This document shows, one piece after another, positions 2,157-64,000 of a DNA stretch of 64,000 nt. The first letter of the stretch is position 1. Each line of letters starts with the position of its first letter. Below the pieces are notes generated by a model. That model saw only the letters and a program-made list of their open reading frames with translations, was not told where the DNA came from and did not search any database. Origin of the DNA: Escherichia coli (lineage in GTDB: Bacteria; Pseudomonadota; Gammaproteobacteria; Enterobacterales; Enterobacteriaceae); the NCBI RefSeq assembly GCF_046105845.1, contig NZ_CP151004.1. The stretch is one strand, 5' to 3'. The translations under genes and the position numbers were made by a program.

Positions 2157-3322
2157 TATTTCCCCTCCACTGCGGCAACAACCTGCTGAGCTGCATCCGT
2201 CAGACCTTTTGCTGCAATAATATTCAGGCCGCTGTCAGCCAGTTTCTTCGCGCCGAGTTCGGCGTTGTTACCTTCCAGACGTACCACGACCGGTACGTTA
2301 ACACCCACTTCCGCTACCGCGCCGATGATACCGTCAGCGATCAGGTCGCAACGAACGATACCGCCGAAGATGTTAACCAGAACGGCTTTCACTTTGTCGT
2401 CAGAGAGGATGATTTTGAACGCTTCGGTTACACGTTCTTTGGTTGCGCCGCCGCCAACGTCAAGGAAGTTAGCTGGTTCGCCGCCGTGCAGTTTAACGAT
2501 GTCCATCGTACCCATCGCCAGACCTGCGCCGTTAACCATACAACCGATGTTACCGTCCAGCGCAACGTAGTTCAGTTCCCACTGTGCAGCCTGTGCTTCA
2601 CGTGGATCTTCCTGCGACTGGTCACGCATTTCGCGCAGATCAGGCTGGCGGAACAGTGCGTTGCCATCAGCGCCCAGTTTGCCGTCGAGGCAAATCAGAT
2701 CGCCCTGTTTGGTGATGACCAGCGGGTTGATTTCGATCAGCGCCAGGTCGCGCTCCAGGAAAATGGTCGCCAGGCCCATGAAGATTTTGGTGAACTGCTG
2801 AACCAGTTTACCTTCCAGACCCAGTTTGAACGCCAGCTCGCGTCCCTGATACGGCATCGGGCCAGTCAGCGGATCAAGCGCAACTTTGTGGATCAGGTGC
2901 GGAGTTTCTTCCGCCACTTTTTCGATTTCCACGCCGCCTTCGGTGGAGGCCATAAAGACCACACGACGGGAACTACGGTCAACAACGGCACCGAGATACA
3001 GCTCTTTAGCGATATCGGTCGCTGCTTCAACCAGAATCTGGTTAACCGGTTGGCCATTGGCATCTGTTTGATACGTTACCAGACGCTTGCCCAGCCAGTT
3101 TTCTGCAAAAGCACGGATGTCTTCTTTGCTGTTTACAACTTTCACACCGCCCGCTTTACCGCGGCCACCAGCGTGAACCTGACATTTCACTACCCACGGA
3201 CCGGCACCGATTTTTGAAGCGGCTTCTTCTGCTTCGCGCGGAGTAGTACAGGCATAACCCACCGGTGCTGGTAAGCCATAGCGGGCAAAAAGTTGTTTTG
3301 CCTGATATTCATGTAAGTTCAT
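2156..3322 (-). CDS. sucC: Succinyl-CoA synthetase beta subunit
   Basis: 388-aa [42 protein letters not shown]... (ATP-grasp). Confidence 0.97.
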
Positions 3323-3415
3323 GTGTTCTGTCCATCCTTCAGTAATCGTTATCTTTTAAACCGTAGACCGACACCCTATCCACGTCGGTCTACAGTGCAG
3401 GTGAAGCTTAAACTA

Positions 3416-4633
3416 CTACACGTCCAGCAGCAGACGCGTCGGATCTTCCAGCAACTCTTTGATCGTTACCAGGAAGCCCACGGATTCGCGACCATCGATC
3501 AGACGGTGATCGTAGGACAGCGCCAGGTACATCATCGGCAGGATCTCAACCTGACCATTCACCGCCATCGGACGATCTTTGATAGCGTGCATACCCAGAA
3601 TTGCGCTCTGCGGCGGGTTGATGATAGGCGTTGACATCAGGGAACCGAACACACCACCGTTGGTGATGGTGAAGTTACCACCGGTCAGATCTTCAACCGT
3701 CAGCTTGCCGTCACGGCCTTTAACTGCCAGCTCTTTGATTTTCTTCTCGATATCTGCCATGCCTAGGGTATCGACATCACGCAGTACCGGCGTCACCAGG
3801 CCGCGCGGCGTAGAAACCGCCATGCTGACGTCGAAATAGTTGTGGTAAACCACATCATCGCCGTCGATAGACGCGTTCACTTCCGGGTAACGTTTCAGGG
3901 CTTCAACCACCGCTTTCACGTAGAAGGACATAAAGCCCAGACGAATACCGTGACGTTTTTCAAACGCTTCACCGTACTGCTTACGCAGATCCATAATCGG
4001 CTTCATGTTGACTTCGTTGAACGTGGTCAGCATGGCGGTGGAGTTTTTCGCTTCCAGCAGACGCTCTGCCACACGCTTACGCAGGCGAGTCATCGGGACA
4101 CGTTTTTCGCTACGTGCAGCCAGAGCCGGTTGCGCCACCGGAGCAGCCGCTGCCGGAGCAGACTCTTTCGCCGGGGCTTTCGCCAGATGTTTTTCCACAT
4201 CTTCACGAGTCAGACGACCACCCACACCGGTGCCTTTAATGGCGCTGGCGTCGAGGTTGTGTTCAGCCAGCATGCGGCGGATCGCCGGGCTTAACGCATC
4301 GTTGTTTTGCTCTTCCAGAGACGCCTGCTGGCGTTGCGCCGGAGTGGACGCTTTCTCTTCAGATTTGGCGCTGGTTTCTTTACCCGCGCTGTTGCCTTCA
4401 CGCAGGCGACCAAGGATTTGACGAGACGTTACCGTTGTACCTTCATCTTCCAGAACCGCATCCAGAATGCCGTCTGCTGATGCCGGTACTTCCAGTACCA
4501 CTTTGTCAGTTTCGATTTCTACCAGCACTTCATCACGTACGACTGCGTCGCCGGGTTTTTTATGCCAGGTTGCGACGGTGGCATCGGCTACGGATTCAGG
4601 CAGGTCAGGGACCAGAATATCTACGCTACTCAT
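3416..4633 (-). CDS. sucB: 2-oxoglutarate dehydrogenase E2, dihydrolipoyllysine-residue succinyltransferase
   Basis: 405-aa ORF with N-terminal lipoyl domain ([12 protein letters not shown]), Ala/Pro linker and C-terminal acyltransferase core (DHRLIDG). Confidence 0.97.
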
Positions 4634-59659: not shown

Positions 59660-61201
59660 ATGGCTTTTGCCTCATTAATTGAACGCCAGCGCATTCGCCT
59701 GCTGCTGGCGTTATTATTCGGTGCCTGCGGAACGCTGGCCTTCTCTCCTTACGATGTCTGGCCTGCGGCGATTATTTCGCTGATGGGGCTTCAGGCGCTG
59801 ACCTTTAACCGCCGTCCACTCCAGTCTGCCGCTATTGGCTTTTGCTGGGGATTTGGCCTCTTTGGCAGCGGTATTAACTGGGTCTATGTCAGCATCGCGA
59901 CTTTTGGCGGAATGCCTGGCCCGGTTAACATCTTCCTGGTGGTGCTGCTGGCGGCGTATTTGTCGCTGTATACCGGACTGTTTGCTGGCGTGCTGTCGCG
60001 CCTGTGGCCGAAAACCACCTGGCTGCGCGTGGCGATTGCCGCCCCTGCTCTCTGGCAAGTGACCGAGTTTCTGCGCGGTTGGGTGCTGACTGGTTTCCCG
60101 TGGTTACAGTTCGGCTATAGCCAGATTGATGGCCCGTTAAAAGGGCTGGCACCAATAATGGGCGTGGAAGCCATTAACTTCCTGCTAATGATGGTTAGCG
60201 GCCTGCTGGCACTGGCGTTGGTCAAACGCAACTGGCGTCCGCTGGCGGTGGCCGTCGTGCTGTTCGCCCTTCCCTTCCCGCTGCGTTACATCCAGTGGTT
60301 TACCCCGCAACCGGAGAAAACCATTCAGGTTTCGATGGTTCAGGGCGATATTCCGCAATCACTGAAATGGGACGGAGACCAGCTTCTTAATACGCTGAAG
60401 ATTTACTACAACGCAACGGCACCGCTGATGGGCAAATCATCGTTGATTATCTGGCCGGAGTCGGCGATAACCGATCTGGAAATTAATCAGCAACCGTTCC
60501 TCAAAGCACTGGACGGTGAGTTGCGCGATAAAGGTAGCTCGCTGGTAACCGGGATTGTTGACGCGCGTCTCAATAAGCAGAACCGCTACGATACTTACAA
60601 CACCATCATCACGCTGGGGAAAGGTGCGCCGTACAGCTACGAATCAGCCGATCGCTATAACAAAAACCATCTGGTGCCGTTTGGCGAGTTTGTCCCGCTG
60701 GAGTCGATTCTGCGTCCGTTAGCGCCGTTCTTTGATCTGCCGATGTCGTCGTTCAGCCGTGGGCCATATATCCAGCCACCGCTGTCGGTAAACGGTATTG
60801 AGCTTACTGCGGCTATTTGCTACGAGATCATTCTCGGCGAGCAAGTGCGTGATAACTTCCGCCCGGATACCGATTATCTGCTGACTATCTCCAACGATGC
60901 ATGGTTTGGTAAGTCTATTGGTCCATGGCAGCACTTCCAGATGGCGCGAATGCGTGCGCTGGAGTTGGCGCGCCCGCTACTGCGTAGCACCAACAACGGC
61001 ATTACGGCGGTGATTGGTCCGCAGGGTGAGATTCAGGCGATGATCCCGCAATTCACCCGCGAGGTGTTAACCACTAACGTGACGCCGACTACCGGACTTA
61101 CACCGTACGCACGTACCGGCAACTGGCCTCTGTGGGTGCTGACGGCACTGTTTGGTTTTGCTGCTGTGCTGATGAGTCTGCGTCAGCGACGTAAACGTTG
61201 A
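59660..61201 (+). CDS. lnt: Apolipoprotein N-acyltransferase
   Basis: 513-aa [50 protein letters not shown]...; C-terminal nitrilase-like domain. Confidence 0.96.
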
Positions 61202-61305
61202 GGTGAATGATGCGCTGGCCTGCAAAATTGCATCATTTTTGCAGGCCAGATAAACCGTTAACACCGCATCCGGTATCAACAAAACATACTTTCTCATTAA
61301 GCGGT

Positions 61306-61332
61306 GGGGCGTGATTATCATGCCCCTTTTTT
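61306..61332 (+). terminator. Rho-independent terminator of lnt, abutting the stop codon of the convergent rhomboid gene
   Basis: GGGGC-gtgattatcat-GCCCC followed by TTTTTT; ends 1 nt before the minus-strand stop at 61334. Confidence 0.65.
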
Positions 61333-61333
61333 C

Positions 61334-63211
61334 TTACGGTTCAGGGATACAAGCCACATTGCCATATTGGGGATGACGAATAATTGCCTGCGGATCAAGC
61401 GAGCGCGTCCTGTCCAGTTGGATTAACCCGTTCTTCGCCATAACAAATATTTTTCTACCATCCGCTGAAAAACGAAGGTGATTAACGTAGCTGGCAGGAT
61501 AAACGCCAATAATCTGCCCGGCATTAATATTGAGCTGGATGACATAACCTTGCAGGCCATATGACACCAACGCTAAATATTGACCGTCCGGGCTAATACC
61601 CTCAACGGAATAAACGCTCCTGCTACACCATTGCGTCATAATACTGGCTTGTTGATCCTCAGCTCTTATACGTGAAATCCCCTGGCTATCGGCAAAAATA
61701 ATCTCTCCATTTTTTGGTCGGAATCCCATCGCAGAAACGACACCACGCGCATCACCTGCGGGAAAGTCTTCTTTCTGATGCGTGATGGTATTGATGCGTA
61801 CAATGTCACCTCTGACCATACCGGGTATCAACAATGTTTTTTCATCCGGGGAAAGTGCCATAACCCAGGCACCAGGTTTATTACTCGTCCCCGTCCCGTC
61901 GTATTTCTCCAGCGGGATATCCGCCACATGCTGATAAGTCACCAGATCAATGGCTGACACACTATTACTGGTGCGATTCATCACCCAAGCTTTTGTGCCA
62001 TCACGCGAGAGGATAAGACTGTCAGGATGTGCACCGGTGGTAATCGACTGAATAATCTCCCCCGTCGCCACGTTAATGACCGATAACGCATTCGCTTCAA
62101 ATGAAGTCGCATAAAGCAACGTTTCATCCGGGCTTAGCGCCAGCGATCTGACGCCCTGATCTTTACAGCCACCACAATGTTTGACTGACTTTTCTTTCGC
62201 TATGGGGGCTGTAAAGGTATGCAGGATTTTCTTTTGTCCGAGGTCGAAAACAACAATGCTGTTGGTGTTTTCAATTGCGGCATACAACGTATTACCATCC
62301 CGACTGATCGCCATATCATGGATATCGGAAATCTCAGCGAGCAAATCACCACTGGCCTGTTCACGACTTACCGGAGCGGATAATGTTTCCCTGAGGGCGT
62401 TGCGTTCCTCCGCTAACTGCTGCTTTTTTTGCCGTCGCTCTTGTTCAATCTCCTGTGGATAAAACTCTTCACGCAGGCTTTGCCTGACTTGTAAAACTGA
62501 CTCACCCATCTGCTGCTGCGCAAGCCAGATAGCCCCGGTCAGAAGAAGACTACCCGCAACAATAATCCCGCCTTCCGTAACAAGCCGGTTTTGCCCATAT
62601 AAACGCGCACTCAGCCCCCCCATCGCGCCACCCGCAATCAGGCCGCCAATGTGGCAAGCGTTATCTATTCCTGTTTGCCGGGCACCGTACAACAGTGTCA
62701 GCGCCACCATACCCAGCAGAGGAAATACTCGCCGCTGGTTTTTATGGTGTGTGCCCGCACCTGAAGCAAGCTGTGTTGCTATCGCAGCGCCAGCTATTCC
62801 CATAATCGCCCCGGATGCCCCAACGCTGATGACTATCTGCTCACTTTCGCGTAACGCATAACAGGCACTGATTAGCCCACCAAAGACGCCGGAGAATAAC
62901 CAGATAATCAGAAGTCGCCATTTCCCCAGTATCCGCTCCGCCACTGCCCCCACCACCAGAAGTGCAAACATATTCATCAGCAAATGGGGAAAACTACTGT
63001 GCAGAAAGACACTGCTCAATAAGCGCCAGGATTCGCCCGACAACGTGAGAGAAGTAACGTTAGCACCGAGATGGATGAGTGCGGATTGATCGACTTCTTC
63101 ATAACTCATCCATTGTGCGAGGTAACAAAATATCCCAACACAGAGCGCAAAAAGGATAAGGGTTATTGCGGGTAATTGAACATTTAACGGCTTAACCGAA
63201 GATGCAGACAT
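61334..63211 (-). CDS. Rhomboid-family intramembrane serine protease fused to a C-terminal seven-bladed YVTN/YncE-like beta-propeller domain (625 aa)
   Basis: N-terminal part: seven hydrophobic segments, L1-loop WR (res 62-63), TM2 H-x4-H-x3-N (HSSFPHLLMN), TM4 GASGA (Ser133) and TM6 ACHIGGLIAG (His187), i.e. a complete rhomboid catalytic signature. C-terminal part (res ~300-625): seven repeats of the form SxDGxxLYV.N..SNsVSVID. RBS AAGGAAGAAA upstream. Family assignment by eye. Confidence 0.85.
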   Translation of the reverse strand: MSASSVKPLNVQLPAITLILFALCVGIFCYLAQWMSYEEVDQSALIHLGANVTSLTLSGESWRLLSSVFLHSSFPHLLMNMFALLVVGAVAERILGKWRLLIIWLFSGVFGGLISACYALRESEQIVISVGASGAIMGIAGAAIATQLASGAGTHHKNQRRVFPLLGMVALTLLYGARQTGIDNACHIGGLIAGGAMGGLSARLYGQNRLVTEGGIIVAGSLLLTGAIWLAQQQMGESVLQVRQSLREEFYPQEIEQERRQKKQQLAEERNALRETLSAPVSREQASGDLLAEISDIHDMAISRDGNTLYAAIENTNSIVVFDLGQKKILHTFTAPIAKEKSVKHCGGCKDQGVRSLALSPDETLLYATSFEANALSVINVATGEIIQSITTGAHPDSLILSRDGTKAWVMNRTSNSVSAIDLVTYQHVADIPLEKYDGTGTSNKPGAWVMALSPDEKTLLIPGMVRGDIVRINTITHQKEDFPAGDARGVVSAMGFRPKNGEIIFADSQGISRIRAEDQQASIMTQWCSRSVYSVEGISPDGQYLALVSYGLQGYVIQLNINAGQIIGVYPASYVNHLRFSADGRKIFVMAKNGLIQLDRTRSLDPQAIIRHPQYGNVACIPEP

Positions 63212-63368
63212 AAGGTGTTTCTTCCTTGAAAAGACAGGTAAAAAGCATTTTTCCCGTGTGCAGTTATCATCCCGGCAAACGTCCCATGCCGAAAAGATAA
63301 CTCTGTCCGAAATATGACTTTTTCAGCCTAAAATTACAATCGTAATTAATTCATCCCTAAGTATTTTT

Positions 63369-63384
63369 TGGCATGTAAGTTGCT
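63369..63384 (+). promoter_or_regulatory. Candidate sigma54 promoter upstream of gltI
   Basis: TGGCATGTAAGTTGCT: the GG and GC dinucleotides are spaced exactly as in the -24/-12 consensus TGGCAC-N5-TTGCW. Confidence 0.5.
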
Positions 63385-63665
63385 TTATTTACTGTGTAAG
63401 CAATGAAATCAGCCGCGACGCAACCGGGTTGCACCACCACAAATCAGCGGTAGCACCAAAAAGGTGCAGTTTAAGAATTTTGCTTCGGAATGGTGCGGCG
63501 CAACTCGCAAAAACAAACAATAAAACAGCAATATCTTTACATTTAGCCAAACTAAATGTTACCTAACAGGCACAACACTGCACAATAAAGTTGCAGACGA
63601 TAACAACACAAACACTCACAACGGGTATCCATGCGTTCTTAACGCAGAAGATAAAGGAGTTGGAT

Positions 63666-64000
63666 ATGCAATTACGTAAACCTGCCACAGCAATCCTGGC
63701 CCTGGCGCTTTCCGCAGGACTGGCACAGGCAGATGACGCCGCCCCGGCAGCGGGCAGTACGCTGGACAAAATCGCCAAAAACGGTGTGATTGTCGTCGGT
63801 CACCGTGAATCTTCAGTACCTTTCTCTTATTACGACAATCAGCAAAAAGTGGTGGGTTACTCGCAGGATTACTCCAACGCCATTGTTGAAGCAGTGAAAA
63901 AGAAACTCAACAAACCAGACTTGCAGGTGAAACTGATTCCGATCACCTCACAAAACCGTATTCCACTGCTGCAAAACGGCACTTTCGATTTTGAATGTGG
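63666..64000 (+). CDS. gltI: Glutamate/aspartate ABC transporter periplasmic binding protein, 3'-truncated by the window edge
   Basis: ATG at 63666 with AGGAG RBS; MQLRKPATAILALALSAGLAQADDAAPAAGSTLDKIAKNGVIVVGHRESSVPFSYYDNQQKVVGYSQDYSNAIVEAVKKKL...; signal peptide present. Confidence 0.92.
   Translation, partial: MQLRKPATAILALALSAGLAQADDAAPAAGSTLDKIAKNGVIVVGHRESSVPFSYYDNQQKVVGYSQDYSNAIVEAVKKKLNKPDLQVKLIPITSQNRIPLLQNGTFDFEC

Follow-up and report, generated by a model that had tools for sequence, protein, structure and literature searches.

Rhom7, an accessory rhomboid protease encoded between lnt and gltI in Escherichia coli, and the separate IS5 insertion of K-12

E. coli K-12 is an incomplete guide to the rhomboids of its species; the majority of natural E. 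coli possess, adjacent to lnt, the gene for a second rhomboid, Rhom7. The lnt-gltI spacer analyzed here, in a window of 64,000 nucleotides from contig NZ_CP151004.1, carries this already characterised gene, and the difference from K-12 is an ordinary accessory-gene polymorphism. We favour, with a probability of roughly 80%, an account in which rhom7 was ancestral at this site, the gene-less form arose by loss, both forms were kept and IS5 entered the K-12 spacer later. The two deeply diverged spacer haplotypes represent a tidy case of an old accessory-gene polymorphism rather than a new kind of system, and their value lies mainly in correcting the K-12-based picture.

With the lnt stop codon (TGA) at 61199-61201 and the gltI ATG at 63666-63668, positions 61202-63665 correspond exactly to the lnt-gltI spacer (Table 1), in which rhom7 is the single long ORF. 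Inspection of the ORFs revealed no transposase-like ORF within the spacer, and a search for repeats around the rhom7 segment found neither inverted nor direct terminal repeats, and no IS ends or target duplications. The hairpin at 61306-61326 and its T-run (61327-61332) leave only 1 nt (61333) before the complement of the rhom7 stop codon; this hairpin is kept in all Escherichia gene-bearing alleles and is likely the lnt terminator. The interval described in the initial annotation, with no IS-like ORF and with a rhomboid-propeller gene that leaves little room to the lnt terminator on one side and to a gltI leader with a sigma54-like promoter on the other, was confirmed at the stated coordinates. 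That annotation did not name the gene as the published Rhom7.

Table 1. Features of the lnt-gltI spacer and its flanks (positions within the window; aa, amino acids).
Feature	Position	Strand	Remarks
lnt (apolipoprotein N-acyltransferase)	59660..61201	+	513 aa
Stem-loop	61215..61249		16-nt arms, 94% complementary; just past the lnt stop codon
Intrinsic-terminator-like hairpin	61306..61332	+	GGGGCGTGATTATCATGCCCC followed by T6
rhom7	61334..63211	-	625 aa
C-terminal all-beta domain of Rhom7	61412..62347	-	aa ~289-600; 7-bladed YVTN/WD40-like propeller in the structure model
Rhomboid core of Rhom7	62615..63037	-	aa 59-199
rhom7 5' region	63212..63366		presumed promoter location
sigma54-type -24/-12 element	63369..63384	+	TGGCATGTAAGTTGCT (TGGCAT-N5-TTGCT), aimed at gltI
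NtrC-like sites	63430..63497		TGCACCA (63430-63436), AGCACCAAAAAGGTGCA (63452-63468), TGGTGCG (63491-63497)
CTAA	63563..63566		IS5 target site in K-12, empty here
gltI, 5' part	63666..64000	+	runs off the window end

Pfam analysis of the ORF identified a Rhomboid domain (E=1.4e-27 over aa 59-199); beta-propeller matches in the C-terminal domain, to YNCE and Lactonase, were weak. The match to the PF01694/MEROPS S54 profile was accompanied by a GxSG serine, a histidine in the following transmembrane (TM) helices and a WR motif in loop 1. In an alignment of 17 sequences with identities down to 26%, G131-A-S133-G134, H187, W62 and R63 were invariant, Ser133 being encoded at 62813-62815 and His187 at 62651-62653. 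The AF2 model (pLDDT 81) comprises seven TM helices, a helical linker and an all-beta domain; the seven long helices, predicted at aa 15-234, agree with the six or more TM helices expected of a rhomboid. DSSP assigned ~28 strands to aa 289-600 of the model (pLDDT mostly 85-95), and the best Foldseek match of this domain was the YVTN propeller 1l0q (E=5e-16), the top matches being seven-bladed propellers. Sequence identity to such YVTN/YncE-type propellers (PDB 1l0q) is only 18%, and, unlike them, the propeller of Rhom7 is joined to a membrane protease; its predicted location is the periplasm. Cys346, Cys349 and Cys621 of Rhom7 are nearly invariant.

The protein shares 93% amino acid identity, the residue numbering and the architecture with two Shigella sonnei entries (P0013 and P0016), by which the gene is assigned to the Rhom7 group as rhom7, the E. 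coli orthologue of S. sonnei Rhom7. A further sequence with 73% identity (P0022) was rejected as an outgroup, as it represents an E. coli allele shortened by an in-frame deletion of 207 bp. S. sonnei Rhom7 (SSON_0610, UniProt Q3Z4D6), which resembles the protein of the window in length class (624-625 aa), in the positions of Ser133 and His187, in the predicted seventh TM helix and in the C-terminal domain, is an active intramembrane protease (Liu et al., EMBO J 2020, PMC7232013). It cuts orphan subunits of respiratory complexes (FdnH, HybA) within their TM helices and thereby marks them for degradation; at its native expression level no cleavage was detectable (PMC7232013). Activity and substrates (the TM domains of FdnH, HybA and HybO) were demonstrated for the S. 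sonnei protein alone, and the window allele differs from it at ~7% of residues. By analogy, Rhom7 of the present strain is probably an active inner-membrane serine protease with a Ser133/His187 dyad. The rhomboid core, with WR loop 1, the catalytic Ser of GxSG and a His in TM6, is common to Rhom7, E. coli GlpG and Providencia AarA. GlpG has six TM helices and an N-terminal cytoplasmic domain, whereas Rhom7 has seven, as does AarA; the predicted periplasmic beta-propeller of ~330 aa is absent from both.

Comparison across genomes indicates that rhom7 is old at the lnt-gltI locus and not a recent insertion, because the site is shared with other species and genera, the gene has diverged together with lnt and it is under purifying selection. 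The same site and orientation were found in E. whittamii, Escherichia sp. MOD1-EC7003, K. aerogenes and a Klebsiella sp.; rhom7 also adjoins lnt in an enterobacterial contig (L013), and K. oxytoca, K. huaxiensis and K. michiganensis are named as sources of related proteins. The ratio of Rhom7 to Lnt distance lay between 2.95 and 4.18 in all 15 pairs, over an Lnt divergence from 2% to 18%; one locus (L027, Lnt 90%) was left out of the comparisons, its assembly being error-rich with many split genes. The ORF was intact in 13 of the 13 gene-bearing alleles examined, and dN/dS was ~0.2, demonstrating purifying selection. The suggestion of an ancestral gene made in the initial annotation is therefore upheld as far as age at the site is concerned. 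A contig scan with the Rhom7 protein, requiring exact 8-mer peptides, retrieved only E. whittamii, Escherichia sp. MOD1-EC7003 and two contaminated MAGs; E. albertii, E. fergusonii and E. ruysiae gave no match under this requirement, which does not prove absence. A Budvicia homologue with 32% identity lies in an unrelated gene context and for this reason was set aside as evidence on deep synteny.

Two spacer alleles were distinguished in a survey of 5426 complete E. coli genomes. A gene-bearing spacer of 2.4-2.5 kb, as in the window, BL21, O104:H4 and probably S. sonnei, was present in 3231 genomes (~60%), counting those with at least 80% of the interval covered. A gene-less spacer of 396 bp, the form of K-12 and O157:H7, with a single junction at 93-100% identity, was shared by 2186 genomes (~40%). 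The two haplotypes diverge by 36% over the 100 bp that adjoin the indel (63367..63466) and by only 2-3% farther out. At the other end, the final lnt codons (..RQRRKR* in the window) form the left edge of the difference; gene-less alleles end in ..RQRRK* and most gene-bearing alleles in ..RARKR*, and the haplotype comparison showed no divergent tract at the lnt 3' end. The rhom7 5' region (63212-63366) is absent from gene-less alleles, save for a possible diverged 24-nt remnant with only 18/24 matches (63283-63306 of the window). No rhom7 coding remnants were detected by tblastn inside the spacers of six gene-less loci, including K-12.

In the order of events that we prefer, rhom7 would have been ancestral at the lnt-gltI site in Enterobacteriaceae, and the gene-less form would have arisen by a deletion extending from the lnt stop codon to just short of the gltI sigma54 promoter. 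The two forms would then have persisted, moving among Escherichia lineages by homologous recombination. A third and much younger event placed IS5 into a CTAA of the gltI leader in an already gene-less K-12 spacer. The direction of change, loss rather than gain, is inferred.

The gene-less spacer is old as well, as judged from its presence in E. marmotae at 88-90% identity and its collinearity with the spacers of Salmonella, a Citrobacter sp. and K. pneumoniae. This short layout would also fit a gene-less spacer native to the Escherichia-Salmonella clade, into which the gene-bearing allele re-entered long ago through homologous replacement, with a different enterobacterial lineage that still had rhom7 at this locus as the donor, and then spread among E. 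coli, E. whittamii and further clades. Over the 60 nt by the indel, following the sigma54 -24 element, gene-less E. coli is 68% identical to Salmonella and gene-bearing E. coli 52-53%. Gene-less E. coli and Salmonella stand together against gene-bearing alleles at 11 sites, with 4 and 5 sites for the other patterns, which is contrary to the prediction of a deletion inside Escherichia, although the informative sites number only 20. Re-entry would further agree with the low GC3 of rhom7 (0.49, well under the 0.65 of lnt) and with a dS among gene-bearing alleles of 0.12 in lnt and rhom7 alike. Nevertheless, the constant Rhom7/Lnt ratio across Escherichia and Klebsiella pairs is the prediction of vertical descent, and a donor would have needed exactly the right distance; the lnt 3' end, moreover, lacks a divergent tract. 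We consider re-entry possible and rather doubtful. The 11-site Salmonella pattern, the short layout, which we counted in four other genera, and the low GC3 likewise speak against ancestry and loss, as do the Budvicia context, the weak 18/24 remnant and the lack of a match in three Escherichia species by the 8-mer scan.

An unlikely variant is that the two forms constitute a very old presence/absence polymorphism across Escherichia under balancing selection, in which each form brings a distinct gltIJKL sigma54 promoter region (TGGCAT versus TGGCAC, and ~45 further differing bases). The 60 nt by the indel may in this case predate the Escherichia-Salmonella split, and presence of rhom7 would be tied to a different expression of nitrogen-regulated glutamate/aspartate uptake. 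A recent horizontal acquisition of rhom7 as an islet in the lineage of this strain, as might be suggested by a slightly lower GC content (0.46-0.50 across most of rhom7 versus 0.53-0.57 in lnt) and the patchy spread across genera, is hardly credible: ~60% of E. coli carry the gene, with alleles up to ~0.2 dS apart, at a site shared with other species and genera, in co-divergence with lnt and devoid of mobile-element features.

The sigma54-type element was the sole match to TGGCAYN5TTGCW in 64 kb, which by itself is not significant (0.25 expected; at least one match in 21 of 100 shuffles). Its position ~297 nt upstream of the gltI ATG is, however, conserved in 13 sequences from five genera, and its GG-N10-GC spacing is that of a sigma54 promoter. 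The element is retained in both haplotypes, the gene-less version reading TGGCAC. NtrC-like sites were called with the consensus of PMC4987338, in which Salmonella gltIJKL is listed as NtrC/sigma54-dependent, and gSELEX in K-12 gave RpoN and NtrC peaks between insH and lnt (PMC8743547). The TGGCAT variant in the window is a putative NtrC-activated, sigma54-dependent promoter of gltIJKL. A second motif, GGCAC..TGCA at ~63573, was rejected as a sigma54 promoter, having the wrong spacing (GG-N9-GC) and no conservation in Klebsiella.

The IS5 copy that the initial annotation places in K-12 does exist: IS5 copy 3 is placed at gltI/lnt in the literature (PMC11677980), and in K-12 strain EMG2 (locus L001) lnt is followed by IS5 (1195 bp, with CTAA on both sides) and gltI, with no rhomboid gene at the site. 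K-12 MG1655 (lnt-insH3(IS5)-gltI) agrees with the window in the flanking genes, the sigma54/NtrC region and the gltI leader, and differs in lacking the 2.07-kb rhom7 segment and in carrying IS5 between the sigma54/NtrC sites and gltI; the window contains a single CTAA there and no IS5. The insertion lies in the gltI leader: 100 bp separate the CTAA site from gltI downstream, and ~200 bp separate it from the indel on its left. When IS5 was excised in silico together with one copy of CTAA, the common 396-bp gene-less spacer resulted, as found in strain 219, with 1 SNP. The K-12 IS5 junction was present in 353 genomes, the 30 among the matches listed being K-12-type laboratory strains. Since the CTAA duplication around IS5 is intact, no adjacent deletion occurred, and the K-12 IS5 clearly represents an independent and later event to which the absence of rhom7 is not due. 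An IS5-mediated deletion or disruption of rhom7 in K-12, as the joint occurrence of IS5 and a missing gene might imply, is refuted by this regenerated spacer, the intact duplication, the distance to the indel edge, the lack of any rhom7 coding remnant and the presence of IS5 there in only 353 genomes, against 2186 with the gene-less junction. Of the initial reading, gene age, packing and the K-12 IS5 stood, whereas the implied link between IS5 and gene absence did not, nor did a loss specific to K-12, the junction being shared by E. marmotae and ~40% of E. coli.

As most E. coli possess Rhom7 and K-12 has none, work on membrane-protein quality control based on K-12 omits this protease. Because IS5 separates the sigma54/NtrC control region from gltI in K-12, nitrogen-control data for gltIJKL from K-12 need not hold in other strains, and the assignment of the RpoN/NtrC peaks to insH need not apply to them either. 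The stem-loop just past lnt (61215-61249) lies in a REP/BIME-variable part of the spacer, and the version seen here is rare; its counterpart is one REP in BL21, two in E. whittamii and only a plain hairpin in Klebsiella.

The intergenic interval between lnt and gltI in the window comprises exactly positions 61202-63665, and the initial annotation, which had given these boundaries, was confirmed in every observed detail. No transposase-like ORF is present in 61202-63665; a rhomboid-propeller gene, rhom7, occupies the interval instead, in convergent orientation to lnt and divergent orientation to gltI. The proposed terminator at its stop codon and the predicted sigma54-like gltI promoter were likewise recovered at the positions listed below. 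A repeat search detected neither inverted nor direct repeats bracketing the rhom7 segment.

Features of the lnt-gltI region (window coordinates)
Feature	Position	Strand	Remark
lnt	59660-61201	+	
Hairpin, then T6	61306-61326 (hairpin)	+	its end lies 1 base short of the rhom7 stop codon, which is on the opposite strand
rhom7 ORF, 625 aa	61334-63211	-	sole long ORF of the interval
sigma54-type element, TGGCATGTAAGTTGCT	63369-63384	+	single such match in the window
Best NtrC-like site, AGCACCAAAAAGGTGCA	63452-63468		NtrC-like sites follow the sigma54 element
gltI ATG	63666		

Between lnt and the end of rhom7, positions 61202-61305 form a REP/BIME hot spot. The version found in the window, a hairpin with 16-nt arms plus half a REP, was matched by 2 genomes among 40 interval matches sampled; elsewhere, BL21 carries one REP, E. 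whittamii two, Escherichia sp. MOD1-EC7003 a collapsed form and Klebsiella a plain hairpin only.

By sequence comparison, the ORF encodes the orthologue of Rhom7 from Shigella sonnei (SSON_0610). The protein is 93% identical to S. sonnei entries over the full length, and Ser133 and His187, the catalytic residues of published Rhom7 (PMC7232013), occupy identical positions. Within an alignment of 17 sequences with identities down to 26%, W62, R63, G131, S133, G134 and H187 are invariant. Pfam assigned aa 59-199 to the Rhomboid domain (E = 1.4e-27) and gave, in the C-terminal half, weak matches to YncE, lactonase and WD40-type propellers. The AlphaFold2 model (mean pLDDT 81) consists of seven long helices (aa 15-234), a helical linker (aa 237-276) and an all-beta domain (aa 289-600), whose top structural matches are seven-bladed propellers, the best being the YVTN propeller 1l0q (E = 5e-16). 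Because there are seven transmembrane helices, the propeller should be periplasmic, and an oxidising compartment would agree with the near-invariance of Cys346, Cys349 and Cys621. S. sonnei Rhom7 is an active protease which, when over-expressed, cuts the transmembrane helices of orphan FdnH and HybA, its native expression being too low for detectable cleavage (Liu et al., PMC7232013). One E. coli contig carries an allele with an in-frame deletion of 207 bp (69 aa) within the propeller (window 61966-62172). Several large protein clusters (P0025, P0026 and P0029; 440-489 aa) contain the propeller part only and come from long contigs, which suggests that rhom7 is N-terminally disrupted in some lineages.

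K-12 (EMG2) shows the order lnt-IS5-gltI and lacks the rhomboid gene, so that the IS5 placed there by the initial annotation is indeed present; IS5 copy number 3 is listed as 'gltI/lnt' (PMC11677980). Inspection of this rhom7-less locus for IS5 ends and a target duplication revealed an element of 1195 bp with CTAA on either side and the gltI ATG 100 bp downstream (equivalent to window 63563-63566). When IS5 was removed in silico together with one of the CTAA copies, the result was, but for 1 SNP, the ordinary gene-less 396-bp spacer of the clinical E. coli strain 219, and no coding remnant of rhom7 was detectable in K-12 and five other gene-less loci. IS5 therefore did not cause the absence of rhom7. 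The circular 113-kb 'plasmid' peccDNA113 (NZ_CP110860.1) carries the order porin gene-IS5-gltIJKL with 100% identity to window 63562-63665; it resembles a circle cut out of a K-12-type chromosome when the nmpC and gltI/lnt copies of IS5 recombined.

Among 5426 complete E. coli genomes, 3231 were gene-bearing (80% or more of the interval covered) and 2186 contained the gene-less junction (93-100% identity), the two classes together accounting for 5417 genomes. The K-12-type IS5 junction occurred in 353, and all of the 30 matches listed were laboratory strains of the K-12 type or had been evolved from such strains. Of the interpretation proposed initially, the age of the gene held, but neither the role of IS5 nor a loss specific to K-12 did. 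BL21, O104:H4 and S. sonnei are gene-bearing; K-12, HB101 and O157:H7 are gene-less. With BL21 and K-12 on different sides, the difference cuts across phylogroup A. rhom7 is already known, and its presence or absence is a common accessory-gene polymorphism; the finding is real but ordinary.

Several lines of sequence evidence argue that rhom7 is old at this site, as the initial annotation had supposed in preferring an ancestral gene to a recent insertion. E. whittamii and MOD1-EC7003, whose sequences align collinearly with 6 kb of the window (93-94% identity), have it between the same two neighbours and equally oriented, as do K. aerogenes and another Klebsiella (50-53% amino acid identity). 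In a further enterobacterial contig it adjoins lnt (57%), and there are named relatives of the protein in K. oxytoca, K. huaxiensis and K. michiganensis. The Rhom7/Lnt distance ratio stays at 2.95-4.18 in all 15 pairs of six taxa, within to between genera, which is the pattern given by a gene descending together with its neighbour. The ORF is intact in 13/13 gene-bearing alleles examined, with dN/dS of about 0.2 (lnt, about 0.06). Among gene-bearing alleles of E. coli, lnt and rhom7 have the same mean synonymous divergence, 0.12, with a maximum of about 0.2; nucleotide divergence climbs toward the lnt 3' end and is much lower in corC.

The gene-less form is likewise old. Spacers of 396 bp in E. 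marmotae (88-90% identity to gene-less E. coli across the 120 nt from the sigma54 element), 354 bp in Salmonella enterica and K. pneumoniae and 362 bp in Citrobacter sp. share one short layout, in which the lnt stop is followed by a hairpin, the sigma54 element, NtrC-like sites and gltI. The forms diverge from the final lnt codons, which read ..CGACGTAAATAA in gene-less alleles, ..GCACGTAAACGTTGA in most gene-bearing alleles and ..CGACGTAAACGTTGA in the window, the last looking like a crossover within ACGTAAA. Homology restarts just upstream of the sigma54 element (~63367). Over the following 100 bp, gene-bearing and gene-less alleles differ by 36%, gene-bearing alleles by 2% among themselves and by 8% from E. 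whittamii and MOD1-EC7003; to the right of this tract the two forms differ by only 2-3%. The 97 nt found only in the short form include a hairpin and a REP-like element, as well as 24 nt that may be left over from the region upstream of rhom7 (18/24 matches).

The better account is that rhom7 would have been ancestral at the site and then repeatedly lost. Alternatively, the gene-bearing form may have been re-imported into Escherichia long ago. Over the 60 nt that follow the -24 element, gene-less E. coli sides with Salmonella at 11 sites, gene-bearing E. coli at 4, and the two E. coli forms side with each other against Salmonella at 5, a pattern that simple deletion within Escherichia would not predict and that leaves room for such a re-import; these informative sites are few, however, and we consider it a serious but less likely alternative to ancestral presence and repeated loss.

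Across 13 sequences representing five genera, the sigma54 element precedes the gltI ATG by about 297 nt. Its -24 element (63369-63374) is TGGCAT in 15/15 Escherichia gene-bearing alleles examined and TGGCAC in all gene-less Escherichia alleles and all other-genus sequences examined, including gene-bearing Klebsiella. Published data agree with a sigma54/NtrC region upstream of gltI: Salmonella gltIJKL is listed as sigma54/NtrC-dependent (PMC4987338), and K-12 gSELEX peaks of both RpoN holoenzyme and NtrC fall between insH (IS5) and lnt, where they were assigned to insH (PMC8743547). In K-12, IS5 parts this control region from gltI (positions 2949-4444 of the K-12 locus L001; equivalent to window 63369-63665), and therefore nitrogen control of gltIJKL may differ there from that in strains without this IS5. 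A second presence/absence difference is located downstream of rihA, about 3.3 kb downstream of gltJ (L014-L023), with hscC, DjlB-like and DUF1266 genes in some E. coli and a DUF1451 gene followed by leuS in others.
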